Origin: Sedimenticola sp. | GTDB lineage: Bacteria > Pseudomonadota > Gammaproteobacteria > Chromatiales > Chromatiaceae | DNA: 64,000 nucleotides | Assembly (NCBI GenBank): GCA_026984735.1 | Contig: JALSRN010000014.1 | Location: 21,405 to 85,404 of the forward strand | Reading direction: 5' to 3' | Shown here: in pieces, positions 11,515 through 49,261 of the stretch | Numbering within the stretch: position 1 is the stretch's first letter | How the letters are laid out: every line of letters begins with the position of its first letter | Program-made: the position numbers and the translations under genes | Notes under the pieces: model-generated | The model's input: the letters and a program-made list of their open reading frames with translations, nothing else | Database searches by the model: none | Told to the model about the DNA's origin: nothing

Positions 11515-11891
11515 GCAAGGGACGACAGCGCGGTTTTTCCCTTCTCGAGGTGCTGGTGGCCTTCTTCATTCTCGCCCTCTCCCTCGGCGTCCTCTACCAG
11601 GCGTTTGGAAAGGGCCTGCACAGCCTCACTCTCTCGGGCCGGCAGACCCGCGCCGCCATTCTGGCCGAGTCGCTCCTCCATTGGCGTGCCCGACTAGGGC
11701 CGTTCCAGAAAGGGGACGTTGAAGGAGAGAGGGATGGCTTTCACTGGCGGGTGGAAGTGGCCGGCTACGCGGCCAACGGCATCCACTACCATCTGTTCCG
11801 TCCCTACCGGCTGCGGGTGACGGTGTGGTGGGAAGAAAGCGGCCGAAATCGCCAGACCCAGTTGGAAACTCTGCAGCTCGCGAGGCTGTGA
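11511..11891 (+). CDS. gspI: T2SS minor pseudopilin GspI
   Basis: RG|FSLLEVLVAF; ATGA overlap with gspH. Confidence 0.85.
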   Translation: MSKGRQRGFSLLEVLVAFFILALSLGVLYQAFGKGLHSLTLSGRQTRAAILAESLLHWRARLGPFQKGDVEGERDGFHWRVEVAGYAANGIHYHLFRPYRLRVTVWWEESGRNRQTQLETLQLARL

Positions 11892-33234: not shown

Positions 33235-35046
33235 ATGACCCCCCGCCCCGCGACCCCCCAGGTTCGCTCCGAGCCCTACACCTGGCCGGAGGTGATCCGC
33301 ATGGTGCTCGCCTACCGCCGCGAACTGGTGGCGGCCAACGTCATCGCCGTGCTGGGCACCGCCGCCGCGGTGCCGGTGCCGCTGCTCATCCCGCTGCTGG
33401 TGGACGAGGTGCTGCTCCACAAGCCCGGCACCCTGGTGGCCTGGTCCAATCGCCTCTTTCCCGAGAGCTGGCACGGGCCGGTGCTCTACATCTTCGCCGT
33501 GCTGCTGCTCACCCTGCTGCTGCGGTTCGTCTCCCTGGCGTTCAACGTCTGGCAGGTGCGCGCCTTCACCCGCATCTCCAAGGACGTCATCTTCCGCATC
33601 CGCCGCGACCTGCTGAACCGACTTCAGTACTTCTCCATGGCCGAGTACGAAGTGCTGGGCCCCAGCACCGTGGCCTCCCATCTGGTCACCGACCTGGACG
33701 CGGTGGACCAATTCGTGAGCACCTCCACCTCCAAGTTCATCGTCGCCCTGCTGACGGTGGTGGGCACCGCCGGGGTGCTGCTGTGGATGCACTGGCAGCT
33801 GGCGCTCTTCATTCTGCTGCTCAATCCGGCGGTGATCTACGTCACCACCCTCTTCGGACGCAAGGTGAAGCAGCTCAAGGCCGTGGAGAACCGCGCCTGG
33901 CAGGCCTTCCAGGAGGCGCTGGCCGAGACCCTGGACGCCATCGAGCAGGTGCGCGCCGCCAACCGCGAGAAGCACTACATCCGCCGCATCGTGGAGAAGG
34001 CCGACCGCATTCGCCACCGCTCGGCCAATTTCACCTGGAAAAGCGACGCCGCCAACCGCCTCTCCTTCATGGTGTTCCTCTTCGGCTTCGACGTCTTCCG
34101 CGCGGTGAGCATGCTCATGGTGCTCTACTCCAGCCTCACCATCGGCGAGATGCTGGCGGTATTCGCCTATCTCTGGTTCATGATGGGACCGGTGCAGGAG
34201 CTGCTCAACATCCAGTACGCCTACCATGCCGCGCGCGCCGCCCTGAACCGCATCAACGCCCTGGTGGACGTGCGGCTCGAACCGCACTTTCCCCACGAGG
34301 TGAACCCCTTCGAAGGGAAGGAGACGGTCTCCATCCAGATGGAGAAGATCTGCTTCGCCTACGGCGACGGGCCGCTCATCCTCAAGGATGTGAGCCTGGA
34401 GATCGCCGCCGGCGAGAAGGTGGCGCTCGTGGGCGCCAGCGGCGGCGGCAAGAGCACCCTGGTGAAGATTCTGCTGGGCCTCTATCTGCCGCGGTCGGGG
34501 CGGGTCTGTTTCGACGGCGTGCCGGTGGAACGCATCGGCCTGGACGTGGTGCGCGACCATGTGGCCACGGTGCTGCAACATCCGGCCCTGCTCAACGACA
34601 CGGTAAGGGTGAACCTCACCTTCGGCGACGAGGTGCCGGAGGAACGGCTCTGGCAGGCGCTGGAGATCGCCCAGCTGAAGGAGGTGGTCAAGCGCCTGCC
34701 ACGCGGCCTGGAGACCCGCATCGGCCGCAACGGCGTGCGCCTCTCCGGCGGCCAGCGCCAGCGGCTGGCGGTGGCGCGGATGGTGCTACGCAACCCCAGC
34801 GTGGTGATCCTCGACGAGGCCACTTCCGCGCTGGACACCGACACCGAGGCGCGCCTGCACCGCGCCCTCTCCGGTTTCCTGAAGAACCGCACCACCCTTA
34901 TCATCGCTCACCGGCTCAGCGCCGTGAAGCAGGCCGACCGGGTGCTGGTCTTCGAGGACGGCCGCATCGTGGAGGAGGGGCGCCACGAGCAGCTCATCGA
35001 GGAGGGAGGGCTCTACGCCAATCTCTACGGCCGGCAAGAGGCGTGA
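33235..35046 (+). CDS. ABC exporter, fused permease/ATPase
   Basis: Six TMs, Walker A GASGGGKST, LSGGQRQR, ILDEATSALD, IAHRLS. Confidence 0.93.
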   Translation: MTPRPATPQVRSEPYTWPEVIRMVLAYRRELVAANVIAVLGTAAAVPVPLLIPLLVDEVLLHKPGTLVAWSNRLFPESWHGPVLYIFAVLLLTLLLRFVSLAFNVWQVRAFTRISKDVIFRIRRDLLNRLQYFSMAEYEVLGPSTVASHLVTDLDAVDQFVSTSTSKFIVALLTVVGTAGVLLWMHWQLALFILLLNPAVIYVTTLFGRKVKQLKAVENRAWQAFQEALAETLDAIEQVRAANREKHYIRRIVEKADRIRHRSANFTWKSDAANRLSFMVFLFGFDVFRAVSMLMVLYSSLTIGEMLAVFAYLWFMMGPVQELLNIQYAYHAARAALNRINALVDVRLEPHFPHEVNPFEGKETVSIQMEKICFAYGDGPLILKDVSLEIAAGEKVALVGASGGGKSTLVKILLGLYLPRSGRVCFDGVPVERIGLDVVRDHVATVLQHPALLNDTVRVNLTFGDEVPEERLWQALEIAQLKEVVKRLPRGLETRIGRNGVRLSGGQRQRLAVARMVLRNPSVVILDEATSALDTDTEARLHRALSGFLKNRTTLIIAHRLSAVKQADRVLVFEDGRIVEEGRHEQLIEEGGLYANLYGRQEA

Positions 35047-35126
35047 ACGGCCCGACGAGGAGGGACGCCCGTTTCCCTGGGTTCCATGAGCGCCGGTGCC
35101 CGCATGGACTCGCCTCCTCGCCGGAA

Positions 35127-37934
35127 TCACTGGTCGGGAATAACCGGATCGCCCGCTCCGATCAAGAACCTCCCTCGCAAATGGAGCCCGTCCTGAACCT
35201 TGTCGAAGGTTATATAACGTCCTCCTTCTTTGAGAAGATCGAACGTCGGTTGCCCGTTCTCGGGGGTCACGAGCACGCGGGGAACCGAATTTTCGACATC
35301 CATTTGCACGTAGAGACGGTACGTCCACCGATCCAAGCCGCCGAAGTCGTCCCTCTCTTCCACCATCAACGCCACGCTCACCGCCTCGCCCGCGTGCATT
35401 TTCAGGTTGCAGCCGGGGGAAGGCGGGCCGACGGGAATGTAACCTCCGTCTTCCACATAGTAATTCACCGGCCCGTTGGCGGAACACGTCATCCGTCTCA
35501 TCGCGTCGAAATCGCCACGGGACGGCCCATCGACCAGGCTGAACCCTAGCCACGAGATCTCTCCCCCTCCACCGGTGAGGTCGTCGTCCCCGGATTCCAC
35601 GGCCTCGATGGGCTCGTAAAGGTGAAGCGCGACGTTGTAACCCGCCACCGGTTTCGTACGATAGACCCTCTCGTCATAGATCGTTCCATTGAGGCGGGCC
35701 AACTGCACCACAACGTCGGCTCCCCAGGGAACGCCCTGGGCGCCCTCTTTCCGATAAGGCAGCGCGAATTTCGCCCAATACTCGCCCGACGATCTTTGCC
35801 GAATGGAAAAGGGCGTCGCCCTGGCCACCACTCTCCCGGAAACGATCGCGCGCGCCTCGACGCGGCGCAAACGCTCGCGCCATTCTGCCCCGGCGGGAGC
35901 GGATGCCTCGATGTACAAGACGTATTCTTCCCGGGTAAAGGAACCAATATGCGAAATCCTCGGATTCGCAAACGACAGCGTGGGAGAGTCCCCTCTGGCG
36001 TCGCGCACACCCGTGGCGCCGCCAGCCAGATCCAAGCGAACGAAGCGCCGATAGGAGAGGTCGTCGAATTCCACGTGGACCCTATTGGTCCCACGCTCCC
36101 CTCCGCAGTCGTATTCCAGATAGGCGTGCGGCCACCGCCGCGGCAACACGACCCTGCCGCGATAGGCGACTTCTCCGCCGGAGACCCGACGCTCTCTGCC
36201 AATCGCCGCCATGCCACCGGCAGCGGAAAATCCATGGACCGCAGCCGGCGCTCCGCTGCGATCGGCGGTGGGGTACTGGAGAACCCGGATCGCCGACCAG
36301 TCGTCGGCGGGACAGCGGCGATCGTCGGCCCGCTTGAGCACCTCGAAGTCCAGCACGAATCGAGCTGGGCAGACGGAACGCATTCCCGCCGCCAAAACCT
36401 CTCCTCTCTCATTGAGCAGTTCCACCGCGATTTTCTTGTCGCGCATGGTCTTGAGTGGATCGGAAGCCAGATTCCCGGGAACGTCGTTCGGCAACGTGAA
36501 CCGAATTTCGGAATCGGAAATCTGCAAGCCTGCGGGCGACAGCGAGGTTCCCCCGCCCGCCAGCACCTCGCCGGCGGTGCCGGCGCGCACCCGTACAAAG
36601 CGTACTCCCCCGAAATTGCGCCCTTTCACGACCAAAGGGGAATGGCGCGCCGCGTCCAGATTGACGCAGGAGCCGGTCCAAGGAGTGTTGACGGACTCTT
36701 CCGAATCCGAAGCGAAGCCGGTGATCGCCGCCTGCGCGCTCTTGGCGACCCGCTCCCGGATGCCCATCGCCTCCGACGCGGCGCTCACGATGCCAGGATG
36801 CCCCGTCCGGCAAAGCGAGCGGTCCATCGCGGAAAGACCGGAATCATCGCCTTGGAGATGCCATTCGACCTCCACGGCGAGGCACTCTCCTTCGGCCAGA
36901 TGAACCCCCATCCAGTAGTCACCTCCCTCATCGCCGGCCTCGCCCAAGGCCACGCGTCGCTCCTCGCTGACCCCGTGGGCAGGCAGGCCGGAAAAATCCA
37001 TGGCATAAGCGCTTGCCGTTCCCTCTTTGTTCAATCGCACCTGCAGCAAGTCGGCCAACCGGTCGCTGGCGTTTCGCAAGCGGACGACCACGACGGGGGG
37101 CGCGTCGTTTTCGATCCGCAGCGTCTCGAAAAGGATATCTCCCTCCCGAATGAACCGAGCTCCCTTGGGAACCCCTCTGGGCGCCTCCGTCATCTTTTCG
37201 ACGGGGATGCGCGGCTTGGTGCCGCTTTTGATTCCCAAATCGGACGACAAGGAAGGCAGGCCGCCCTTGGGAACCACCGCCGTTTCGGCCCGTTTTTTCG
37301 TCCCGCGCCGACCGGGAAGGCCCAGATCCGACGGCAGCTTCGGCACGGCGGGAAAAACATGACGCTTTTTGGCCGGCGCTTCCCCTTTCTTGCCGGAACC
37401 GGCGACGGAAGACGAGAAGGAAGGCGCCGCGCCGCCGACGCCCGCCGCCGGCAGTTTCGGAACCTTCATCAAGGTCTTTTCCTTCGTTTTCGGCGAAACG
37501 GAAGGCGACGGAAAATTGGGCACGGCCGGCACTTTCGGAATCATGCCGGCGGCCGTGGGCGCTTTGACCGTGGACGGCGACGGGAAGGCGTTCGGCCGGG
37601 GGGCGACCGCCGGAACTTTACCGGGCTTCGGAAAGGCGGCTCGCGGCGCCGCCGTCGCCGATGCCCCCGTTACCGGCTTTTGCGCCGCGGACGGAAGCGA
37701 ACTTCCTTTTTCGAAACCGGAAAGGGGAAAACCGGCGGGCCGCTCGGGCGGCGTCTTCCCGACGGCGTCTTCCTTCCTTTTCGTGGGCGGCACCGCGAAA
37801 GAGCCGGCCTTGTCGATGATGGATTTGTTCGGCAGAACCGGAAACCCTCCTTGATCGGCCGAAACGGCCGCCATGGAGAAGATGACCGCCCAAGCAAACG
37901 CCGGCAGCGCCAGTTTCAAGCCCGATGCGTTCAT
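35127..37934 (-). CDS. Large secreted hypothetical protein (935 aa) with Pro/Lys-rich stalk and beta-sandwich domains
   Basis: Strong GAGGAGGT RBS, Sec signal, ~260-aa P/K/A/S low-complexity region, then Ig/IPT-like segments. Confidence 0.75.
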   Translation of the reverse strand: MNASGLKLALPAFAWAVIFSMAAVSADQGGFPVLPNKSIIDKAGSFAVPPTKRKEDAVGKTPPERPAGFPLSGFEKGSSLPSAAQKPVTGASATAAPRAAFPKPGKVPAVAPRPNAFPSPSTVKAPTAAGMIPKVPAVPNFPSPSVSPKTKEKTLMKVPKLPAAGVGGAAPSFSSSVAGSGKKGEAPAKKRHVFPAVPKLPSDLGLPGRRGTKKRAETAVVPKGGLPSLSSDLGIKSGTKPRIPVEKMTEAPRGVPKGARFIREGDILFETLRIENDAPPVVVVRLRNASDRLADLLQVRLNKEGTASAYAMDFSGLPAHGVSEERRVALGEAGDEGGDYWMGVHLAEGECLAVEVEWHLQGDDSGLSAMDRSLCRTGHPGIVSAASEAMGIRERVAKSAQAAITGFASDSEESVNTPWTGSCVNLDAARHSPLVVKGRNFGGVRFVRVRAGTAGEVLAGGGTSLSPAGLQISDSEIRFTLPNDVPGNLASDPLKTMRDKKIAVELLNERGEVLAAGMRSVCPARFVLDFEVLKRADDRRCPADDWSAIRVLQYPTADRSGAPAAVHGFSAAGGMAAIGRERRVSGGEVAYRGRVVLPRRWPHAYLEYDCGGERGTNRVHVEFDDLSYRRFVRLDLAGGATGVRDARGDSPTLSFANPRISHIGSFTREEYVLYIEASAPAGAEWRERLRRVEARAIVSGRVVARATPFSIRQRSSGEYWAKFALPYRKEGAQGVPWGADVVVQLARLNGTIYDERVYRTKPVAGYNVALHLYEPIEAVESGDDDLTGGGGEISWLGFSLVDGPSRGDFDAMRRMTCSANGPVNYYVEDGGYIPVGPPSPGCNLKMHAGEAVSVALMVEERDDFGGLDRWTYRLYVQMDVENSVPRVLVTPENGQPTFDLLKEGGRYITFDKVQDGLHLRGRFLIGAGDPVIPDQ

Positions 37935-37967
37935 GATTCTTCACCTCCTCTTCATCTTTTTTCTTTG

Positions 37968-37994
37968 TGTCGGCCCATCGCTCCTTCCGGTTCA
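37968..37994 (-). promoter_or_regulatory. Putative ECF sigma promoter P4
   Basis: TGAACC-ggaaggagcgatgggc-CGACA, 34 bp upstream of the 935-aa gene. Confidence 0.75.
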
Positions 37995-38023
37995 ACGACG
38001 AGAACGGCGACTCACAAACCGGC

Positions 38024-39157
38024 TCACTCGACGGTGACTTGGTACTCGCAACGGGCGTTGTTGGTTTCATCGCTTTCCGGCACGCCGTTGTAGGGGTCCA
38101 CCGTCAGGCAGAGCCAGTAACGTCCCGGCGGCACGCCTCCAACCCGCAAGTTCCGTTGCTCCCGCGGGATCCTCATGCGCTCGTCGGCGGCCAGCGGCGG
38201 CGTGCGGTCGATCTGCCGCACCACGTAAACCCCGGGGGCATAACGTCCCCGTCGGGGCAGTTCCACTCCGTTGGTTTTCGAAAGCAGCACATGGACTCGA
38301 TATCCGCAGCGGCCGTCGTAACCTGGCGCGGGCCCGGTCCCTTCGTTCAGCACCAAGATATTGAAGCGGTGAGGTTCGCCTTTTCTCAAGCGCGTGGGCG
38401 CTTTGACCGCCGCCGCCTCGAGGTCAGCCCGTCCGTTCCCCGGGCAAGAGGAAAGCTCGGGCGCCCGGTTCCCCACCCGCCCTCTCGTCGCCGGCTTTTT
38501 CCGGGGTTTGGAGGCGGCGCCAGCCGTGCCGGACTGGGGATCGCGAAAGATCCGGCCCAGCAGATCCTCCACCACTCTTCGCCTCGACGACCGCCGGGAG
38601 GAGCTTGCCGCATCTTGAGAGTCTCGGCGCGCCGTCCTCTTTTTATCCGCTGCCGCCACCAGCAGCTCTTTGCAGGCCACGTTGTTTCGTTCGTTCCGCT
38701 CCTTATGGTGATCCAGCGGATCCACCACGCCGCACATCCACCAACGCCCGGGGGGGATATCCCGCGGTATCTTGACCATCCGATGGGTCTGCCATCTCCC
38801 CGACGACGCCAGCTTCGATCCGGCGCGGAACACCCCGTTTCGCAACACGCCATCTTCCCGAAAATGGGAGGAGGAGCGCATGGAAAGGGGAATGGGCACC
38901 CGCCTGTCTCGGGAGATGACCAGCGCGACCATGACGGACCTCATACGACGGGAATTCGAATTTTCCTTCGCGGAGCTTCGAAAGCCGCGGTTCGACACCT
39001 TCACCCGCACCCCCAGCCGCTCGCCGGGCCGGGCGCGGAAACGGTCATTCTGCACCGACAAGACCAGATCCAGGCGGGCCGCGAAAACCGGCGTGGTCGC
39101 GGACACCGAAAGGAAGACCACGAGAACGCCCGCGCCAAACGCTTTCAGCATGGACAT
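38024..39157 (-). CDS. Secreted tandem CARDB-domain protein
   Basis: GGAGG RBS, signal peptide, two CARDB-type ends VDPLDHHKERNERNN and VDPYNGVPESDETNN. Confidence 0.8.
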   Translation of the reverse strand: MSMLKAFGAGVLVVFLSVSATTPVFAARLDLVLSVQNDRFRARPGERLGVRVKVSNRGFRSSAKENSNSRRMRSVMVALVISRDRRVPIPLSMRSSSHFREDGVLRNGVFRAGSKLASSGRWQTHRMVKIPRDIPPGRWWMCGVVDPLDHHKERNERNNVACKELLVAAADKKRTARRDSQDAASSSRRSSRRRVVEDLLGRIFRDPQSGTAGAASKPRKKPATRGRVGNRAPELSSCPGNGRADLEAAAVKAPTRLRKGEPHRFNILVLNEGTGPAPGYDGRCGYRVHVLLSKTNGVELPRRGRYAPGVYVVRQIDRTPPLAADERMRIPREQRNLRVGGVPPGRYWLCLTVDPYNGVPESDETNNARCEYQVTVE

Positions 39158-39285
39158 GATCACTTCCTCCCCCATCCTTGTTTTCTCGAAAATGCAATCG
39201 TGTGGAGATTCAGAAAACGCGCCGTTTGCGCCTTTTCAAGATTTCCATCCCTGGCCCTCCGAGCCAGATCGCGGCTCCGGCGGCG

Positions 39286-41370
39286 CTACCGGGACGGATC
39301 CGGTTGACACACCTCTTCCGCGCACGGTCCCAGGCCGAAAACGGTTCCGAACGCGATGCCGATGGTGGGTTCGTTGGCGTTGACGCCTTGCCTGAACTTG
39401 CAGCCCGCCCCCCCGTTTCCAGCGCCATCCGTGCCGGGCATCGGACGAGCGGTCGGAGAACCACAGCCGCTGGCCATCGCGGTGAGTTCCTCGATCGTAG
39501 GGGGTTCGGTGCGCTCATGCGCGCCGTGGGCCGCGCATTCCACCTCCTTTCCCGCCTTTCCCGCGCCCCCGAACCAGGAGGTCGCGGGGTTGGAAGGCGC
39601 GTTCTCGCCACCGGGGGTTTCTTCCGTCATGCCGCCCGCCTCAGCCGCGGGCGAGGGCTGCGAGGCGGGATTTTCACAACGGGAACGGGCCTCTTCCAGA
39701 AGGCGATCCGCCTGCCCTGCATAGAGCGCTTGCGCCAGACAAGCGTCGCATTGCAGTTGCGCGACGCTGCGCCCTCCGCCCAGGACATCCGGTCCTCGAA
39801 GAGGATTTTCACCTGGCCCCTGGCCTTTTCGACTGCCATCGATCACCAGGTCGCCTTTCACTCTTTTCCAATATTCGGGGGACCGTTTTTTGGAATCTGG
39901 CAGCTTGCTGCGCTCGCCCAGGGGATCGGGACCGTTGCAAAAAGCAGACTGGGATCCGGCGGCGCATGCGGCCCTCACGAGGCTTTCACTCGGCCGCAAT
40001 CCGCTCCTTCGCGCGCTCTCCACCGTGCGGTGTCCCTGGCTTCGCAAATATTTCTCGAAATCGTGCAGCGCCTGGTCCGCCTCGTTGACATAATGGTCTC
40101 TGTAGTAATTCATGGCTTCTCCGACCAAGAAATCGCCGATATCCTTGGCGGTTTTGGCGGCCCCCAACAAACGTGCCGCCCCCTCTCCAACCAACCATGC
40201 CAACAGGTCCGACATGCCGTCCTCGGCCCACCCGCCGGGAATGCTGCGGCTGCGGCAGGCTTTCTCTTCCAGAACACGCCGGCATCTGGGGCTCACCTGC
40301 AGCGGATGCCGCCGACCGGATCCAATGCCCCCATTTTCCCTTCCGCCGCCCGACTTGCCCGAGCACGGATCGAAGCCTTCGACCTTCATGAAAAAGCCGC
40401 CGACTCCGCTCTCCGCCTTTGCGCCTTCGTTTCGTCCGAAGGCGCCCCTCAAGGCCCCGCATGCGCTGCGGCCTTCCCACAAATCTTCCAGGAACCTCCA
40501 GGCGGAAGGGGTGTCCTCGATCCACCAAGTGATGCTGTTTCCTTTTTCAATCACCCGCGCCTCCACCACGCCGTCGCCATCCGGGTCGTAATTGACCGCA
40601 ACGGCAGGCCTGGTGACCAGAGTACCGACGAGCCGGCCGTCCACGATCAAAGGCAGCCACTCTTCATCGCCGCTTTTGTACAACCATCGGTCCTCCCGCC
40701 GAACCTTGCGGTCCGTGGGCAGCGGTTTCCGCACCAGCAGCAGAGCGTACACCCGCCCCCGCCGCCGCATTCCGCCCGAACCGTCGATCTCCAGCAGCTG
40801 GTAGGGTCGCCGCTCGCCCTTTCCCAATCGGAGCAACTGGTCTCTGGAAAGAGGCAGGTCGGCCAACGATGAAAGCGACGTCAAAGCGCTTGCATCCACG
40901 CCCGCGGGCACCGCCTCCCTTCCAGATTTTCCGAAAGGAGGGGGCAAATAGGGTGTCCGTCGCACTCGATGCGCGGGCTTTTCCCGCCCATCGACACTTT
41001 TCGGAACGGAGGTTGCCCCCGCCGGTCGTCCTTCTTTTTCGTCCGTTTCCGGGCGGGGGAGCGTCACCGTTTTTCCCGAACCTCGCCCCGCTTCCCCGCC
41101 GAGCGGCCCCGCTCCCTTCCGATTCCGGTCCGCCGCACCGGCGGTCGGGGCCTGCGTTTGCCTCCTTTCCCCCATATTCATTCCATGCGTGAGCGTCATC
41201 GGAGCGGAAGGCCGAGCCTCCCCGCCGGATGGGCCGCTTTTCTCGACGACCGGACGCACGGAGAAAAATGGGGGCACTTTCATGGCTTCGTCCTTCATCA
41301 CCACGGGATCGTCCCCTCCCGAAGCCAACCCCCATGCGACCGTCAAAGCGAAATACAGAGTTCTCTTCAT
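39286..41370 (-). CDS. Secreted Cys-rich hypothetical protein (694 aa)
   Basis: Signal peptide MKRTLYFALTVAWGLA, low-complexity linker, DPDGDG motif, 14 Cys in the C-terminal part. Confidence 0.7.
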   Translation of the reverse strand: MKRTLYFALTVAWGLASGGDDPVVMKDEAMKVPPFFSVRPVVEKSGPSGGEARPSAPMTLTHGMNMGERRQTQAPTAGAADRNRKGAGPLGGEAGRGSGKTVTLPRPETDEKEGRPAGATSVPKSVDGREKPAHRVRRTPYLPPPFGKSGREAVPAGVDASALTSLSSLADLPLSRDQLLRLGKGERRPYQLLEIDGSGGMRRRGRVYALLLVRKPLPTDRKVRREDRWLYKSGDEEWLPLIVDGRLVGTLVTRPAVAVNYDPDGDGVVEARVIEKGNSITWWIEDTPSAWRFLEDLWEGRSACGALRGAFGRNEGAKAESGVGGFFMKVEGFDPCSGKSGGGRENGGIGSGRRHPLQVSPRCRRVLEEKACRSRSIPGGWAEDGMSDLLAWLVGEGAARLLGAAKTAKDIGDFLVGEAMNYYRDHYVNEADQALHDFEKYLRSQGHRTVESARRSGLRPSESLVRAACAAGSQSAFCNGPDPLGERSKLPDSKKRSPEYWKRVKGDLVIDGSRKGQGPGENPLRGPDVLGGGRSVAQLQCDACLAQALYAGQADRLLEEARSRCENPASQPSPAAEAGGMTEETPGGENAPSNPATSWFGGAGKAGKEVECAAHGAHERTEPPTIEELTAMASGCGSPTARPMPGTDGAGNGGAGCKFRQGVNANEPTIGIAFGTVFGLGPCAEEVCQPDPSR

Positions 41371-41428
41371 CCCTTATTCCCTCCCGACACGCCGTCCGAT
41401 CCCGGTTGCGGTCTTCATTCAGGGGATG

Positions 41429-41455
41429 GGTCGTCGATTCTCCGGCCGGGGTTCA
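41429..41455 (-). promoter_or_regulatory. Putative ECF sigma promoter P3
   Basis: TGAACC-ccggccggagaatcga-CGACC, 59 bp upstream of the 694-aa gene. Confidence 0.75.
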
Positions 41456-41581
41456 CGCCTCCATCGGTTTTCCCGCATCGGCGGCCATCCAACCCTTCCT
41501 CAGCTCCGGCAACCCGTCATCGCCGAAAAGAGCGCCAGGTATCGACGAATCCTCGAAGCGGGGAACGGGGCCGGTCTGCCG

Positions 41582-42532
41582 TCACTGTTCGACCAATTCC
41601 ACCCGCCGGTTTTTGGCGCGCCCCTCTTCCGTGGCGTTGCTCGCCACTGGCGCCACCGGCCCCACGCCCACCGGCTTCAGCCGCCTGGCCGGAATGCCGT
41701 GCCTTCCCACGAGCGCCCGAGTCACGGCGGCCGCCCTTCTTTTGGAGAGCGCCAGGTTGTAGTCGTACTCCCCGGTATTGTCCGTGTGCCCCACGACGTA
41801 GAGCCGGACGCGAGGATGGGCCTTGAGGTATTTGGCGATCTCCGACAAAGTGGCATTCGATTCGGGCTTGAGATGGTCGCTATCGAGATCGAAGGTGATT
41901 CCATAGAGAGCCACATGGCCTTTGGCACCGATCTCCGAAGCCATCTTTTCAGCGCCCACCACATCCAGTCGCGCGTCCAACGGACGCGATTCCACCACGC
42001 GCAGATAGGCCCAGTACCGGTCGCCCCAGGTGGTGTGATGGATGAAACTGTAAAGCGCCACCACCGCCTCCTTGCCTCGCAGAGCGCCTTTGGCCACGAG
42101 AACGTAGATGGGGCGGCTCAAGGGCGGAAACTCTTCGTGAAGCTTGGCCTCGCTTTTCGACACTCCGAAAAAACCTTTGTCGTCTTCATATTCGAACAAC
42201 ACCTGAAAGCCTTTTTCTTCCAGATTTCTCCGATATATCATCGCCGCTCCTTCGGCGCCCACGTCCTTGGGCAGCCAATAGTCGATCTTCCAGATCTCGC
42301 CGGACATCCGCTCCGTCTTCCCCACGAGCCCTTTTCTTTCCGACACGGGAAAAGTGATCGAACCGGCTCTTTTGTGCACATATTTTCCGATGATCGATCC
42401 GGGAACCCTCCCCAATCGAGGGTGGTCGGCGCTTCCGGCCACATCCTTACGCGGCGGCTTGGGCGCTGCCACCGCCGACGCGAAAGCCGCCACCAACAAC
42501 GCCGTCATCGTCAATTTGAACCACTGAATCAT
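41582..42532 (-). CDS. OmpA-like peptidoglycan-binding domain protein (DUF4892-like N-terminus)
   Basis: Signal peptide; GHTDNTG..YNLALSKRRA..NRRVEL; no transmembrane barrel. Confidence 0.88.
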   Translation of the reverse strand: MIQWFKLTMTALLVAAFASAVAAPKPPRKDVAGSADHPRLGRVPGSIIGKYVHKRAGSITFPVSERKGLVGKTERMSGEIWKIDYWLPKDVGAEGAAMIYRRNLEEKGFQVLFEYEDDKGFFGVSKSEAKLHEEFPPLSRPIYVLVAKGALRGKEAVVALYSFIHHTTWGDRYWAYLRVVESRPLDARLDVVGAEKMASEIGAKGHVALYGITFDLDSDHLKPESNATLSEIAKYLKAHPRVRLYVVGHTDNTGEYDYNLALSKRRAAAVTRALVGRHGIPARRLKPVGVGPVAPVASNATEEGRAKNRRVELVEQ

Positions 42533-42577
42533 CGCTCTCCTCATCTTCCGTTCTCCGGTTCTTCGATTTTTGTCCGT

Positions 42578-44038
42578 TTACGATCCGTCGCCGCAACCTG
42601 GGTGACGGAGAATCCCATGGCCGTACACCGGATCCACGCCCGGTTTTCCCGCATCCGACGCGCTTTCCAGCAATTCCTCCAACGCTGAAACGGTTCCCCG
42701 GCTCTCCTCCAGCGCCAGGGCGGCGGCGACGAAAGGAGCGGCGTACGAGGTTCCGCTGAGATAACGACCACCTCGCCGACCCGTCGGCAGCCAAAGATCC
42801 ACGCCCGGAGCGGCGAGGGTCACATGGGAGCCCCGGTTCGCCAACCGCCATGCCCGCCCTTCGGCATCCACCGCCGTGACGCCCACCACTCCGTCATAGG
42901 CCGCCGGATAGACCGGTTCCATCTTTCCATCGTTTCCCGCAGCCGCCACGATCTGCAATCCCTTGCGCCGGGCCAACAACAACGCGAGTTCCAGCAGCCG
43001 GTTCGGCGGCCCGCCGATGCTCATCACCCCCAGTCGCACGTTCCGGCGTACCAACCAATCCAATGCGGCCACCATTTTTTCGGCGGTGGCGTCCACAATG
43101 TCGGCCTCACGGTTGCGCAGCACCACGGCAAGATGCAGTTCCGCGCCGGGAAGCAAGCCGCCGAAGCCCGAATCGCCGCGCCCGACCAACAGACCCGCTA
43201 TCGCCGTGGCGTGATCCGCGGGCGCCGGTCGTTCGGCCGCTCCAAGAAAAGAGAACGATTCGATGGCAGCCCCCCGCAAAGCAGGATGGGCTCTTTCGAC
43301 GGGTCCATCCACCAAGCCGATACGGGCGTCCCGGCCACAGTCTGAAGTGCTGTTCCAGCCGATCAAGCGCTGCCCGTAGATCAAGGCTTTCCCTCCCATG
43401 GGTCGGTAACGGTGGTTCACGTCCATCCACACGTCGGGAGAGGTTTGCCTCAGCGCCACCAGTAACGCTTTTTCATGGCCCTCCGGCACCCGAAAAACGC
43501 TCAATATCATTCCCAGCCCGTGCAACACCTTGCGACGGCGCAGACGATAACCGCTTTGTCTCATGGCTTGCGCCACGGCTTTGGCCACCTCGAGCTCCCC
43601 GCTCGCAATGAGGATCTCGCCCGGTTCGATTCCCCGGTCCACGGTCGCCGCCAACGACGACGGCAAAGGAGGCAGGGACGGTAGAGACCGATCGAGAAAA
43701 TCCCCCCGCGACAAAGCATTCCGCCGAAAAACAGGCTGTCCGCTCGCTCCAGGCTCGGGCGCCTTCCATTCTCCAGACGTCTCCCCGCCGCTGGAACCGT
43801 CGGCCGCCGGCGCATCGGAAGAGGACTGGCCACCCTCCTCCTGATCCGCAACGTAAAATCGCGCATGCGCGGATTTCCAACGGGAGGAGGCGTCGAACAC
43901 CGTTTCCCTGTTTCCAACCGCGACCATCCATTGCCCTCGATCTCCACGGGCATCGGAGGAAACTCGGCCACCTCCTTCCGCGGCCGCCAGCGAAGCGGCC
44001 AGGAGCACCAGCGCTAACGATCCGACCGCCACTTTCAT
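42578..44038 (-). CDS. S8 subtilisin-like serine protease
   Basis: Signal peptide, prodomain, triad LVDG / DHATAIAG / SGTSYAAP, oxyanion AAAGN. Confidence 0.92.
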   Translation of the reverse strand: MKVAVGSLALVLLAASLAAAEGGGRVSSDARGDRGQWMVAVGNRETVFDASSRWKSAHARFYVADQEEGGQSSSDAPAADGSSGGETSGEWKAPEPGASGQPVFRRNALSRGDFLDRSLPSLPPLPSSLAATVDRGIEPGEILIASGELEVAKAVAQAMRQSGYRLRRRKVLHGLGMILSVFRVPEGHEKALLVALRQTSPDVWMDVNHRYRPMGGKALIYGQRLIGWNSTSDCGRDARIGLVDGPVERAHPALRGAAIESFSFLGAAERPAPADHATAIAGLLVGRGDSGFGGLLPGAELHLAVVLRNREADIVDATAEKMVAALDWLVRRNVRLGVMSIGGPPNRLLELALLLARRKGLQIVAAAGNDGKMEPVYPAAYDGVVGVTAVDAEGRAWRLANRGSHVTLAAPGVDLWLPTGRRGGRYLSGTSYAAPFVAAALALEESRGTVSALEELLESASDAGKPGVDPVYGHGILRHPGCGDGS

Positions 44039-44670
44039 GGCCCTCTCACCTCTTTCACGATATCCGACGACACGAGCCGGTTTCGGACGCGGGCGACCGC
44101 CCCTCTTTTGGCGGAGACGATCCGCAGGCGGTATACGCCCAAGGCGCCCGGCCCTCCGGCAAACTCAAGACCCGCCTGCTGCAACAGACGGCGGATCCGA
44201 CCTTCCGTCGCGTCTTGGCGGAAACGAACCTGGAACACGACCTCCCCTCTTCCTCCTTCCTCTCCCAAAGGCCGATAGAGCGCCGGCGAAGAGGAGCGTT
44301 GGTGGAAAAGCACGCCCAGAATCGCCCCTTCGACGACCACCGCCAAGCTCGCCGCCATGGCCAGCCGCCGCCACCAAACCGGATTCCGCTTCACGCCCGC
44401 CCTTCCTTCTTCTTCGATCCGCTCGCGCCGTATGCGATTTTGCAATTCCTCCCACACCTTCTCGTCCGGCTTCCGGTCCCTCCATTTCTCCTTCGCTCCC
44501 CGACACACCGCCTGGAGAAAACGGTACTCGAGCCGGCATCGCTCGCAGTTCTCGATGTGGACGAGCACCCGGCGTAGTTCAGGTTCTTTCAAAGAGCCAT
44601 TCGCCAGCAAGGGCAACAAATCGTCCGGATGCGTTCCCCCGTTCATTTGCCGATTCGATCGATTCGTCAT
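44035..44670 (-). CDS. Zinc-finger (ZAS, zf-HC2) anti-sigma factor
   Basis: HIENCERC (HxxxCxxC), one TM, periplasmic domain; ATGA-coupled to the S8 gene; start could be 44646. Confidence 0.88.
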   Translation of the reverse strand: MTNRSNRQMNGGTHPDDLLPLLANGSLKEPELRRVLVHIENCERCRLEYRFLQAVCRGAKEKWRDRKPDEKVWEELQNRIRRERIEEEGRAGVKRNPVWWRRLAMAASLAVVVEGAILGVLFHQRSSSPALYRPLGEEGGRGEVVFQVRFRQDATEGRIRRLLQQAGLEFAGGPGALGVYRLRIVSAKRGAVARVRNRLVSSDIVKEVRGP

Positions 44671-44720
44671 TCCAATGCCCCGCAATGGCCCTAACGGCCG
44701 AGATTCGGTATCCACCCTTC

Positions 44721-44747
44721 AGTCGAGCGAAAAGACAAAAGGGTTCA
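44721..44747 (-). promoter_or_regulatory. Putative ECF sigma promoter P2
   Basis: TGAACC-cttttgtcttttcgct-CGACT; the -35 element overlaps the ECF stop codon. Confidence 0.75.
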
Positions 44748-45329
44748 TTGACGAGGGAGGCCGTCGAGTTGCAGGCAAGCTTTGATCTTGCGTCTGGCAT
44801 GGTGGATCCGGGTCTTGACCGTACCTTCGGGACAATCCAGGATCGCCGCGATCTCTCCATAGGGGAGGTCCTCGAAGAAAGCCAGGTAGACCACCTGTCG
44901 CATGGGGGAAGGGAGCCTTTCGATGCAAGCCTCGACCCGGTCCAGGTCCTGGCTCGCCTCAACCGCCTTCTCCGTCATCGAAGAGAGGGAGGAGGCTTCA
45001 TCGGCCGTTATCGAATCCAAAGCGTCTTCGCCGGCATCCCCTCCCTCTTCGCACCACCGGCGACGGCGCAATTTATCCAGAATCTTGTGGTGGGTGATCC
45101 CCAGCAGCCATGTGGCCACCGCCGATTTACCCTGATAACGCGCGGCGCTTCCCCGCCACACCTCGAAGAAAACCTCGTTGACCACATCCGCCGCATCGGC
45201 TTCCACCCCCAATCTGGACAAGGCAAAACGGTAGACGCGGGCGGAGAACCGTTCATAAAACCGCTGGAGCGCCTGCTCGTCGCCCGCGCTGATTCTCCGA
45301 AGCAATACCCGTTCAGGGTCCTCCGCCAT
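44745..45329 (-). CDS. ECF sigma-70 factor
   Basis: GGAGGT RBS; ADVVNEVFFEVW, STWL-like ATWLLGITHHK, IAAILDCPEGTVKTRIHHAR. Confidence 0.93.
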   Translation of the reverse strand: MAEDPERVLLRRISAGDEQALQRFYERFSARVYRFALSRLGVEADAADVVNEVFFEVWRGSAARYQGKSAVATWLLGITHHKILDKLRRRRWCEEGGDAGEDALDSITADEASSLSSMTEKAVEASQDLDRVEACIERLPSPMRQVVYLAFFEDLPYGEIAAILDCPEGTVKTRIHHARRKIKACLQLDGLPRQ

Positions 45330-46551
45330 TGCCCCCACCTCCGGTCCCGCCGCCACGCCAGAACCGCCTCCATTCGCTCGCCGCGATGGTTCTTCCTTCC
45401 GCGTCGAAGGCGACCACCCGCCACCATCCCAGGCCGTCCTTCATGCGCTCCATGACCAACGGCGAGAAAACGGCTTTGGATTGTCCACCCGCCACCAACT
45501 GACCCGCCTGAATGGGGGATTCGTCAGCGGAGCGGTTGACCACCGTTCCGAACGCACCCTCCTCCGCGCCGCGGTACTCGATGCGATAGGCCGCCGCCCC
45601 TTCCACCGCGCTCCATTCGAGGGAATCCCCTTTCCCCAAACGAGCGCCCGGCCCCGGCGTCTTGATGACGATGCGCTGGGGAATCGGAAGGCGGTTACCA
45701 TCCCCTTGAACGAAGTAGCGCAAAATCAGCCCTTCGCCATCGATCGCGGGCTCGAGCACGCGGAGCCGCACAAGATAAAGACCGGAAACATGCGTGGGCA
45801 AAAGAGGGCCGTTCAAAACAGCACGCCCATTTCCGTCGAGATATCGATGTACGGTCAGCAAAGGACGATAAACCGGCGTGCCCTGGGTGCTGCCCGGCTC
45901 GGCCACTTCCCAGCGGGCTCGCAGCAACCCACGTCCATCGTACTGGACTTCCGCATGGATCCCCAGTTGCGTTCCCGCCGCCACCACGCGGTTGACGGCA
46001 CCATCGTCGAAACGCATGCGGATGAAAGAGAGCGCAAATTCATTGCTGCCGATGCCGCCGCTCTGGATGGGCAGCTCCAGCCGGGCCTGGAATCGGGAAG
46101 GAGACAACGATTCTCCGAAGATTCGACACAAGGCGACGACATTGGCACCCCTCCGGCGGGCGGCCACCACCAAGGCCGGAGGAATGGCCACCTTTTCGCT
46201 CAAAGTGGCGGCGCCCCCATACGGGGGGGCGCCGTTCAACTGAAAAGTGCCGGAAACCGTGGTGGGAAAGGCTTGCAAAGGAGCGCAACCATTGCCCGAA
46301 GGGATGCCGATCACCAGCTGATTCGAAAAAACCCGATCGACGCGAAGATTCGGAGGCGCTTTGAAAGAGACGTTCACACTCCACCGCAACCGCACATCGT
46401 TCACCCTGTTCTGAAACACCAGCGCTGGATCGGACGTACCGACCGCCACGTCGATGTCGGCCTCCGCGGTCGCAAACCACGACACGGCCAGAACCGACAA
46501 GAGCCATGCAATTCTCGCCTTTTTCGAAGCTCTTTCACTCGCCCATGCCAT
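45313..46551 (-). CDS. Exported hypothetical protein with Ig/Fn3-like domains (412 aa)
   Basis: Signal peptide, beta-rich domains, Fn3-like LEWSAVEGAAAYRIEY..WWRVVAFD; overlaps both neighbours. Confidence 0.7.
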   Translation of the reverse strand: MAWASERASKKARIAWLLSVLAVSWFATAEADIDVAVGTSDPALVFQNRVNDVRLRWSVNVSFKAPPNLRVDRVFSNQLVIGIPSGNGCAPLQAFPTTVSGTFQLNGAPPYGGAATLSEKVAIPPALVVAARRRGANVVALCRIFGESLSPSRFQARLELPIQSGGIGSNEFALSFIRMRFDDGAVNRVVAAGTQLGIHAEVQYDGRGLLRARWEVAEPGSTQGTPVYRPLLTVHRYLDGNGRAVLNGPLLPTHVSGLYLVRLRVLEPAIDGEGLILRYFVQGDGNRLPIPQRIVIKTPGPGARLGKGDSLEWSAVEGAAAYRIEYRGAEEGAFGTVVNRSADESPIQAGQLVAGGQSKAVFSPLVMERMKDGLGWWRVVAFDAEGRTIAASEWRRFWRGGGTGGGGNGGGP

Positions 46552-48538
46552 AACCGACCCTCACACCCATGTAGAGTTGCCAATCGTTCTCGTTTCCTGC
46601 ACCGCTTTCCCATCGCTGATGCACGCCGCTGAGGCTCAGCGCAACGTCGGGGCGCCCTTCCTTCGGCGAGAACAGCGTCCAGGAAATCCATCCCGAAACG
46701 ATCACGCTTTTTTCATCCAGAGAGTCGGCCTCACGCCGGTTACGGTTCAACATGGGCGTGACGCCCATGGACAATCTACCGTCCATGATTCCCGACAACG
46801 TAACGGGCAACTGGTAGTTTTCGGTTATGGTTCGATCGCCGCCGCCGTCGTATCGCGTCACATCCCTGGACAACTGCGGCTGGAATATGAGGCGGTTTTC
46901 CAAGAACCCCAACGCATAACCGAGCGACCAGCCGTTGGTGCGGCTATCCGCGTGCACGCCGGTGAAATCCTCGTTCCGCGCCGTGGTGAGGCGAAGATCG
47001 CCCGTGCCTCCGAACAGGGCGAAGGAGAGGCGCCCTCCCAGAGTGCGCGTGGAGTCGTTCGCGAGCGGGTAGGGATAGCCCAGCGGACGGGTCACCGGGC
47101 GCCCACGCACACGACTTCCATCCAAGCCTACCGAGGTAACGAAGCCCGCCAGCGGCCGATCGAATCCATAGGAGAGATCCAGGCGCAGATCGTCGAGGCG
47201 CGAGGTGGGAAACGACTCCACCTCGTCCACATTGTTTTCAACCCTTCTGAACGAGGCGCCGGCTTGCAGCCCTCCCCGAGCGATGCCGAGACTGAATTGC
47301 GCCGCCTTTTGATCGCTCTGCTGGGCCGGGTTCATCAGGCTGTAGTAATAAGTGCCGATGCGGCCGACAGAAACTTTGAAGGTCCAGAGCAAGGGAGTGG
47401 CCGAAGAGGAATTCAGCTGTCCATCCAGCGCCATCCCCAACAGCCAGGCGTCGTCATTCACATCGTCCATCAAGGTGCCGGAAGCATCGCCATTCCAGCG
47501 CGTTCGCGCATATTCTCCATGCAGCTTCAGCTTACCTTCGAAAAGCTGGCTCGAGCCGGAGAACACGATTCCCCGCCCCTTTTGCCGATATTCCGCTCCG
47601 TAGCTCCCTTCTCCGCCCAGAGTGCCCTCTCCACCGTAAGCCATGGCTTGCAGCACCAGCCGTTCGGGATGTTCCTCCAACGGGAAAAGAGTGAACGCCC
47701 CCCCTGCAAGACGGTTTTTCGGATCGGTCACCCCGAGACCATGCTGAAAGCCACTTTCGCTATCCGGTCGACTCATGAAGGCGGAGAAACGGTAACGCCG
47801 GCGATCCCGAACGCCCAGATCGACCTGAATTCCGCGGTAACTGGAGCCGGCGCTGAGCAGGCTCCCGGCGAGGGGAGAGAAATGGCCCACCTTGGCGCCG
47901 ATGGTTCCGCGCTCGAGGTTGAGCAGATAATTGCTCAGCTCCAAGCGCCGCCGTGCCGCCGAACCGTTTCCTCCGCTGCTGTAGCCCAGATCCATGTGCG
48001 CGTCCGCACGCCACTCGCCGCCACCGGCGGCGCCCTCCAGGCGCAAACTCCCATTCCCGCTCCACTCTTTTCCCTGCTCTTTCCAGGCGTCGGTGGCATC
48101 CAGCCTGCGCGCGGCGGTAAGCTCCGCCGCCACATGTCCCCTCGCCTCCCGAAACAACCGCGAATACCGAACCTCCAACTGCCAAACGCCCCGTTCTTCC
48201 ACGCTTCCATCCAGCGCGTACTCCACCACTCTCAGTTCGTGCCTCCCCGGTGACAACGGTTCCACGGGCCGATAGACCACGTGATCCGTTTCCCGCGCCA
48301 CCATCCCCGTCACGTCCACGCCATCGAGTTCCAGCGCAAGACGCGCCAACAGACTTGCCGGCCAGTCGCGGGGAATCCGGATGCGGATGGCGTCCCGCCC
48401 TCCACGCCACCCTTTTTCCGGCGCTTCGAGCGCGAGTCCTTGGGAGGAGGAAGAGAGCGAGCCGAAGGAAGGCCCGAAAAAGAACAGTAGCAGCAACGGC
48501 GCCAGCAGCGTACGCCACAAACGAGAGGTTTCCATCAC
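46535..48538 (-). CDS. Predicted outer-membrane beta-barrel with N-terminal Ig-like domain (667 aa)
   Basis: Signal peptide, alternating amphipathic G/S/aromatic strands over ~500 aa, terminal strand WQLYMGVRVGY. Confidence 0.7.
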   Translation of the reverse strand: MMETSRLWRTLLAPLLLLFFFGPSFGSLSSSSQGLALEAPEKGWRGGRDAIRIRIPRDWPASLLARLALELDGVDVTGMVARETDHVVYRPVEPLSPGRHELRVVEYALDGSVEERGVWQLEVRYSRLFREARGHVAAELTAARRLDATDAWKEQGKEWSGNGSLRLEGAAGGGEWRADAHMDLGYSSGGNGSAARRRLELSNYLLNLERGTIGAKVGHFSPLAGSLLSAGSSYRGIQVDLGVRDRRRYRFSAFMSRPDSESGFQHGLGVTDPKNRLAGGAFTLFPLEEHPERLVLQAMAYGGEGTLGGEGSYGAEYRQKGRGIVFSGSSQLFEGKLKLHGEYARTRWNGDASGTLMDDVNDDAWLLGMALDGQLNSSSATPLLWTFKVSVGRIGTYYYSLMNPAQQSDQKAAQFSLGIARGGLQAGASFRRVENNVDEVESFPTSRLDDLRLDLSYGFDRPLAGFVTSVGLDGSRVRGRPVTRPLGYPYPLANDSTRTLGGRLSFALFGGTGDLRLTTARNEDFTGVHADSRTNGWSLGYALGFLENRLIFQPQLSRDVTRYDGGGDRTITENYQLPVTLSGIMDGRLSMGVTPMLNRNRREADSLDEKSVIVSGWISWTLFSPKEGRPDVALSLSGVHQRWESGAGNENDWQLYMGVRVGYGMGE
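46723..46749 (-). promoter_or_regulatory. Putative internal ECF sigma promoter P1
   Basis: TGAACC-gtaaccggcgtgaggc-CGACT inside the barrel gene, 172 bp upstream of the 412-aa/ECF genes. Confidence 0.6.
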
Positions 48539-48664
48539 TCCATCCCTCGACCTTTAACGGTCTTATTTTTTTTCGAGTGCCGGCCCCTTCCTTATACGCA
48601 AAAAATGCGGAGACGAGGGGTTGGAAGCTTCGCGCGACAGCGTTATGGTCGTTTTCGCAAAAGC

Positions 48665-49261
48665 TTAGTTGAATCCACGCCCCTTGTCATCCATCAGGTT
48701 CATGTAGAAACGGCCGGGGCTGTGGGGGTCGCGCAATATGTCGCCCACCCGTGGAACGAAGCGCCCCTGACGGCGATCCTCGAAGTAGAGACGCAACGTC
48801 TCCCGCACCACGGCGAAGGCGAGCTCGTCCCAGGGAATCTCCTCTTCCCGGAAGAGCGCCACCTCCAGCGACTCTTCGCCCGGCGCGAAACGGGCGTCGG
48901 CGAGCCGCCCCCGGAACAGCAGATAGACCTGGTCGATGTGCGGCAGGTTGAAGGTGGTGTAGAGCTGCAGAATCTCCACCCGGGCCTTGGCCTCCTCCCA
49001 GGTTTCCCGCGCGGCCCCCTCCTGGCAGCTCTCGCCGTTCTCCATGAAGCCGGCGGGCAGGGTCCAGAGGCCGTAGCGGGGCTCAATGGCGCGCCGGCAG
49101 AGAAGGAGACGACCATCCTCGTACTCGGGAATGCAGCCGGTGACCAGCTTGGGGTTTTGATAGTGGATCTCGCCGCAACGCGTGCAGACATGGCGCTCGC
49201 GGCTGTCGCCGGGCGGCACCCGAAGCTCCAGGCGCCCGCCGCAGCTGCTGCAATAGTTCAT
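48665..49261 (-). CDS. Nudix hydrolase with N-terminal zinc ribbon
   Basis: CSSCG..CTRCG, YQNPK, Nudix box GFMENGESCQEGAARETWEEA. Confidence 0.92.
   Translation of the reverse strand: MNYCSSCGGRLELRVPPGDSRERHVCTRCGEIHYQNPKLVTGCIPEYEDGRLLLCRRAIEPRYGLWTLPAGFMENGESCQEGAARETWEEAKARVEILQLYTTFNLPHIDQVYLLFRGRLADARFAPGEESLEVALFREEEIPWDELAFAVVRETLRLYFEDRRQGRFVPRVGDILRDPHSPGRFYMNLMDDKGRGFN

Follow-up and report, generated by a model that had tools for sequence, protein, structure and literature searches.

Four copies of a two-part DNA motif, TGAACC-N16-CGAC, lie within a nine-gene cluster (35127-48538) in a 64-kb stretch of a Sedimenticola sp. genome (the whole stretch that we analyzed, located on contig C14 and hereafter called the window). 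The cluster encodes an extracytoplasmic function (ECF) sigma factor, an anti-sigma factor, an S8 subtilase, and several surface or secreted proteins. We consider it very probable that this sigma factor, which is of the ECF33 type, uses the four sites as promoters. The promoter reading is strongly supported, as it rests on a published motif that was tested experimentally and on conservation across multiple lineages.

A pattern search of the window returned exactly four matches to the full motif, all of them on the minus strand:

P1, 46724-46749, minus strand: within the 3' end of the coding sequence of a putative outer-membrane barrel protein, 172 nucleotides (nt) 5' of the ATG at 46551 of a gene for a 412-amino-acid (aa) protein
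P2, 44722-44747, minus strand: 5' of the anti-sigma and S8 protease genes, 51 nt from the ATG at 44670
P3, 41430-41455, minus strand: intergenic, 59 nt 5' of the ATG at 41370 of the gene for a 694-aa secreted protein
P4, 37969-37994, minus strand: intergenic, 34 nt 5' of the ATG at 37934 of the gene for a 935-aa protein

An earlier, sequence-only reading of this DNA had reported four copies at 172, 51, 59, and 34 nt from gene starts. The copies are indeed where it placed them, apart from one surplus base in its coordinates, and the distances match the ATGs listed above. P1 lies 189-214 nt ahead of the stop codon of the barrel gene. The initial three bases of the P2 -35 element are the TGA stop codon of the sigma gene, and the distance from P2 to the anti-sigma gene is 51 or 75 nt, depending on whether translation starts at ATG 44670 or ATG 44646. 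P2, P3, and P4 are intergenic and correctly oriented, and they stand 34-75 nt ahead of start codons.

The number of copies was compared with dinucleotide-preserving shuffles of the window, in which 0.26 matches were expected and the maximum was 2 in 100 shuffles. By itself, the hexamer TGAACC occurs 41 times in the window, so only the full bipartite motif is rare there; the earlier statement that no sites exist elsewhere in the window thus holds for the full motif, not for TGAACC alone. Across the entire genome (2,443,025 bp, 65% GC, 101 contigs), we found 13 exact copies of TGAACC-N16-CGAC, and between 2 and 18 copies for spacings from N13 to N20. The nine genome copies beyond the cluster are about at background level, and the motif is not common genome-wide. 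The chance rate is ~2e-6 per position. The Poisson expectation (lambda) is 0.025 in the 13.4-kb cluster, in agreement with the earlier rough estimate of ~0.02. The probability of finding at least four co-directional copies in the cluster is 1.5e-8. Since the motif had been defined post hoc, we repeated the test with the literature motif GAACC-N16-CGAC, which is independent of the window. This pattern has 43 matches in the genome, and the cluster holds four that run in the same direction (Poisson P = 5e-6). Overall, the observation holds and far exceeds what chance would produce. A consensus scan of 34800-49000 revealed no sigma-70-like promoter, and terminator-like sites in the same region were not commoner than in shuffles.

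An ECF33-type sigma factor, anti-sigma factor, and promoter motif

The motif is not new, as it equals the published ECF33 consensus. The promoter Pecf33_375 of Bradyrhizobium japonicum reads ...CGTCGAACCGTCCGCTGCATCGACCCGACCAACC..., which corresponds to GAACC-N16-CGAC; within the fragment spanning -60 to +20, GAACC begins at -32 and CGAC ends at -8 (PMC3817407). In E. coli, Pecf33_375 was activated ~200-390-fold by ECF33_375 and ECF33_423, and the anti-sigma factor AS33_375 (blr3043) repressed ECF33_375 152-fold (PMC3817407). The ECF33 pair was also functional in Sinorhizobium meliloti (PMC10880074). A literature search for TGAACC together with ECF turned up nothing relevant, and the main text of the ECF re-classification paper (PMC7826278) mentions neither ECF33, nor subtilases, nor this motif.

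The sigma factor of the cluster is a two-domain ECF protein that comprises regions 2 and 4 only. Over 194-203 aa, it matches the Pfam families Sigma70_r2 (6.4e-14), Sigma70_r4_2 (7.1e-18), and Sigma70_ECF, as well as the NCBIfam family sigma70-ECF (2e-28). We compared it by BLASTP with a library of 43 reference sequences taken from the supplement of PMC3817407, which provides two reference sigma factors per original ECF group (43 groups), along with tested promoters and anti-sigma factors. The library represented 38 of the 43 original groups, five of them by both members, and did not include ECF06-10, 41, and 42. The best matches were ECF33_375 of B. japonicum (37% identity, 118 bits) and ECF33_423 (109 bits), followed by ECF19 as the next-best group (88 bits), ECF31 (81 bits), and ECF01 (79 bits). 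The genome holds three ECF sigma factors in all, and that of the cluster is the only one of the ECF33 type. The other two are RpoE (ECF02), which is encoded on contig C10 and is 65% identical to E. coli RpoE, and an ECF15/26-like protein.

The anti-sigma factor, which is encoded directly 3' of the sigma gene, points to the same family. A profile built from the window protein and eight orthologs aligned with AS33_375 (blr3043) over 187 columns, from the sigma-binding N-terminus through the membrane helix to the periplasmic C-terminal domain (hhalign probability 97%, E 8.6e-11). A homolog search with the anti-sigma protein matched only itself. As the sigma factor, the anti-sigma factor, and the motif all agree, we assign the system to the ECF33 family. 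The ECF promoter interpretation put forward in the sequence-only reading is supported by these comparisons.

The closest known systems are the ECF33 references, namely ECF33_375, blr3043, and Pecf33_375 of B. japonicum and ECF33_423 of Rhodopseudomonas palustris (PMC3817407; reused in PMC10880074). They resemble the system described here in the sigma factor, in the full-length anti-sigma factor, and in the promoter, which is (T/C)GAACC-N16-CGAC at the canonical -35 and -10 positions in both. They differ in that the reference promoter lies directly 5' of the sigma gene, whereas the presumed autoregulatory promoter here lies inside the upstream barrel gene. A second promoter that overlaps the sigma stop codon is a feature of the present cluster, unlike the reference. 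In addition, the host is a gammaproteobacterium, while the references are alphaproteobacterial. More distant similarities exist to the SigW/SigY-type promoters of Bacillus subtilis (TGAAAC-N16-CGTA) and to Pecf31 (TGAAC-N17-CGTC), which share the AAC of the -35 element, a -10 element starting with CG, and a spacer of 16-17 nt. However, their -10 elements are CGTA or CGTC rather than CGAC, and the ECF31 and ECF01 sigma factors score lower against ours. In both E. coli and S. meliloti, Pecf31 also responds to ECF33 (PMC10880074).

Sites in orthologous clusters and competing explanations

We searched for orthologous clusters using the 412-aa protein as a marker. The following loci were recovered; MAG denotes a metagenome-assembled genome:

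L004 (= L006): another Sedimenticola species, 53% identity
L005: a second genus of the same family, 29% identity
L007: gammaproteobacterial MAG
L008: Burkholderiales MAG
L017: Steroidobacterales MAG
L010-L016 and L018: Pseudomonas/Aquipseudomonas genomes

Exact or one-mismatch sites occur at equivalent places in at least five lineages. Sites of the P1 type, at the 3' end of the barrel gene, were found in L004 (3506), L005 (13593, as TGAACT), L007 (9317), L008 (2089), and L017 (9554, as TGAACT). Sites of the P2 type, at or just past the sigma stop codon, were found in exact form in L004 (5514), L005 (11592), and L010-L016, while L018 has a spacer of N17. Accessory genes located 3' of the S8 gene are likewise preceded by sites in L004 (9348), L005 (9510), and L007 (14132). 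The sequence-only reading had stated that no copy precedes the barrel gene, and this is true of both Sedimenticola genomes that carry the cluster. In contrast, L005 (15931-15956) and L007 (7443-7468) do carry a site ahead of the barrel gene, so the membership of the barrel in the regulon varies by lineage. When 22 sites were aligned, TGAAC(C) and CGAC alone proved invariant, and the 16-nt spacers varied, even among the Pseudomonas genomes. A sequence profile built from the 22 sites detected no further sites in the Pseudomonas loci besides P2, and scans that allowed two mismatches were too noisy to interpret.

The sites within the barrel gene are informative because, in a protein alignment, they fall on non-homologous codons: LNRNRREAD in Sedimenticola, LNLAYPFTD in L007 and L008, and LNYFYGRFD in L005. 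Amino-acid conservation therefore fails to explain them, and the pattern looks like promoter turnover under selection. The barrel genes of Pseudomonas carry a divergent form, GGAACA-N16-CGAC (L010:8873-8898 and L018:8979-9004), at codons homologous to those of the Sedimenticola P1 (WNKLQETDD versus LNRNRREAD), which may represent a weaker or ancestral form of the internal promoter.

Several points count against reading all four sites as ECF33 promoters. Identity to the nearest ECF33 reference is only 37%, and the group call rests on one or two references per group, together with the anti-sigma factor and the motif. The search for orthologous sites used the very same pattern, so it is their position and orientation that carry weight, rather than the match as such. 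An exact P1 is missing from the Pseudomonas clusters, and the spacer between the sigma and anti-sigma genes of L007 has no recognizable P2. Finally, P1 lies inside a coding sequence, 172 nt from the next start. One could suppose that P2, P3, and P4 are real, while P1 arose by chance or through coding constraints, in which case the sigma gene would be transcribed only from an unrecognized promoter 5' of the barrel gene, without direct autoregulation. The location of P1 within the barrel gene and its lack of an exact counterpart in Pseudomonas would fit this explanation, as would its in-frame reading as Leu-Asn ... Asp, whose codons are common in a GC-rich genome. We nevertheless consider it unlikely: a site recurs in the last 120-260 nt of the barrel gene in two Sedimenticola species, G023, L007/L008, and L017, at no fewer than three different non-homologous codon positions despite a chance rate of ~2e-6 per position, and a sigma-70-like promoter was not detected upstream.

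It is far less plausible still that the motif is not a promoter at all, but an operator of another protein, a recombination site, or the remnant of a mobile repeat. The foreign composition of the cluster would suit such an origin, since the GC content at third codon positions (GC3) of its genes is 0.69-0.77, compared with 0.93 in the neighboring gene. However, the motif consists of two boxes held exactly 16 nt apart by freely varying sequence, lacks dyad symmetry, and always points the same way as the gene that follows it, and its flanks show no similarity to repeat elements. Moreover, it matches exactly a promoter that ECF33 sigma factors have been shown to drive. That the sites are conserved while their spacers diverge also favors promoters read by the ECF33-type sigma factor of the cluster.

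In L007, the region 11516-11700 carries a long perfect palindrome (gtaggtgcgaatttattcgcac ... gtgcgaataaattcgcacctac) in the place of P2, which looks like an inserted element similar to repetitive extragenic palindromic (REP) sequences.

The proposed circuit and the extent of the regulon

The cluster comprises the following genes, in their order along the minus strand:

46535-48538, minus strand: 667-aa putative outer-membrane barrel protein, no Pfam or NCBIfam match
45313-46551, minus strand: 412-aa secreted protein, no family match
44745-45329, minus strand: ECF sigma factor of the ECF33 type, likely start ATG 45329, longest open reading frame from GTG 45356
44035-44670, minus strand: single-pass anti-sigma factor with a zf-HC2 domain, start at ATG 44670 or 44646
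42578-44038, minus strand: secreted S8 subtilase (Peptidase_S8, 1e-22)
41582-42544, minus strand: OmpA-like peptidoglycan-binding protein (OmpA family, 3.8e-22), presumed last gene of the P2 transcript
39286-41370, minus strand: 694-aa secreted protein, no family match, first gene after P3
38024-39175, minus strand: 383-aa CARDB-domain protein (CARDB, 8e-08), probably on the P3 transcript
35127-37934, minus strand: 935-aa secreted protein, no family match, the gene after P4

We infer the transcription starts, operon limits, feedback behavior, and inducing signal from the anatomy of the cluster. In the circuit that we propose, region 4 of the sigma factor would bind the -35 element TGAACC, and region 2 would bind the -10 element CGAC, 16 bases further on. 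Transcription would begin ~8 nt past CGAC, and the geometry of the reference promoter predicts starts near 46716 (P1), 44714 (P2), 41422 (P3), and 37961 (P4) on the minus strand. The single-pass anti-sigma factor would tether the sigma factor to the membrane, to be removed when a periplasmic signal arrives. P1 would transcribe the 412-aa and sigma genes, thereby providing autoregulation, and would probably read on downstream. The 412-aa gene overlaps the stop codon of the barrel gene by 17 nt and the start of the sigma gene by 17 nt, which suggests co-transcription and translational coupling of the three genes. In this genome, no ECF33-type promoter precedes the barrel gene itself. P2 would add sigma-dependent transcription of the anti-sigma, S8 subtilase, and OmpA-like genes, with negative feedback through the anti-sigma factor, and P3 and P4 would switch on three secreted proteins.

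A similar arrangement is known from the rpoE/rseA locus of E. coli, where the sigma gene and the anti-sigma gene each have a sigma-dependent promoter, as is proposed for the present cluster. The rseA P3 promoter of E. coli is a sigma-dependent promoter dedicated to the anti-sigma factor (PMC8595263). With dual promoters of this type, induction would be expected to lift the anti-sigma factor more than the sigma factor. The two systems differ in that E. coli RpoE belongs to ECF02 and recognizes another promoter consensus. In addition, the E. coli site-1 protease DegS is encoded outside the operon, whereas the S8 subtilase gene here is part of the presumed anti-sigma transcript.

Two minor aspects of the architecture stand out. 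First, a predicted ECF promoter is embedded in the coding end of the gene upstream, where site turnover, rather than conservation of the protein, apparently keeps it. Second, the -35 element of P2 also provides the stop codon of the sigma gene. Neither alters what is known of ECF signaling or amounts to a new kind of signal.

Beyond the cluster, two further exact copies of the motif stand in a position to act as promoters:

C85 site, contig C85:18977-19002, minus strand: exact and intergenic, 46 nt 5' of the gene for a 332-aa signal-peptide protein
C10 site, contig C10:84510-84535, plus strand: exact and intergenic, ~60 nt 5' of the gene for a 165-aa Pro/Lys-rich signal-peptide protein

The regulon may therefore be wider than the cluster, with the four sites of the window forming only a part of it and at least the 332-aa and 165-aa proteins adding to it, a possibility towards which we lean. 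Both sites are exact, intergenic, and oriented with their genes, both genes have a Shine-Dalgarno sequence and encode signal peptides, and both sites show the extended form CGACTCA, which is common among the orthologous sites. The C85 gene, which adjoins the end of its contig, shares the low GC3 of the cluster. Against this, approximately seven background matches are expected genome-wide, of which roughly one would be intergenic, and the C85 protein has no homolog in 40 relatives. Neither protein has a Pfam match. A wider regulon extends the explanation that the cluster sites are ECF33 promoters and does not compete with it. In light of these two sites, and of the copies upstream of the barrel gene in relatives, the earlier claim that the four motifs define the ECF regulon is too strong. 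The remaining seven exact copies in the genome were regarded as background. Six lie in coding sequences, one of them just inside the start of lysS; the seventh is intergenic, but only 19 nt 5' of recG, too near for a normal leader.

Overall, the analysis provides a well-supported regulon prediction for an uncharacterized surface-protein island, which comprises four predicted promoters, nine cluster genes, and two candidates elsewhere in the genome. As the island is tied to a sigma/promoter pair proven in E. coli, its promoters and its anti-sigma factor are directly testable with existing reporters.

The anti-sigma factor, the subtilase, and the island

The public gene call for the anti-sigma factor is 203 aa long and starts at ATG 44646, which is also the best start according to the ortholog alignment. 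The longest open reading frame begins at GTG 44715, which coincides with the predicted transcription start of P2 (44713-44715); it is thus unlikely to be the start codon unless the mRNA is leaderless. The protein matches zf-HC2 (1.4e-05), and its HxxxCxxC motif, a feature of the N-terminal domain of class I zinc-binding (ZAS) anti-sigma factors, reads H-IEN-C-ER-C. This motif is kept in Sedimenticola and L007, lost in the Pseudomonas orthologs (both His and Cys), and absent from blr3043, so zinc binding is not a constant of the family.

An AlphaFold2 model based on nine sequences contains a confident beta-alpha-beta-beta-alpha-beta domain at residues 137-201. This periplasmic domain of ~65 residues is kept in all orthologs and in blr3043 of Bradyrhizobium, and is therefore a general feature of ECF33 anti-sigma factors and not particular to this island. 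A Foldseek search of the PDB with the domain model returned nothing at E <= 0.001. Among the many generic ferredoxin-like folds in its output were pro-subtilisin E (3whi), the prosegment of subtilisin BPN' (1spb_P), and the prodomain of PC1/3 (9fid_D). In Pfam, two of the nine orthologs showed a weak match to Fervidolysin_NPro-like (best E 0.0014).

The S8 subtilase gene adjoins the anti-sigma gene in every orthologous cluster inspected, and in the window it overlaps the anti-sigma stop codon by 4 nt. That the subtilase cleaves the anti-sigma factor is speculation. One could envisage that the ECF33 sigma/anti-sigma pair is built into a conserved, horizontally moving surface module of five genes (barrel, 412-aa protein, sigma factor, anti-sigma factor, and S8 subtilase), in which the subtilase, co-transcribed from P2, serves as a dedicated site-1 protease that recognizes the prodomain-like periplasmic domain. 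We regard this proposal as tentative and rather doubtful. If true, it would constitute a self-amplifying proteolytic switch of a kind not described for any ECF system; our literature search found no description of this module linking ECF, subtilisin, and prodomain.

All nine cluster genes have a GC3 of 0.69-0.77, while that of the adjoining ABC-transporter gene (33235-35046) is 0.93. The cluster is carried by 2 of 40 related genomes and, within the genus, by 2 of 20 (the window's own genome and one of the 19 others searched). Given its atypical GC3 and patchy presence, the cluster looks like a horizontally acquired island. It is patchily common to Sedimenticola, other Gammaproteobacteria, Burkholderiales, and Pseudomonas/Aquipseudomonas, and the Pseudomonas cluster likewise has a CARDB protein on its flank.

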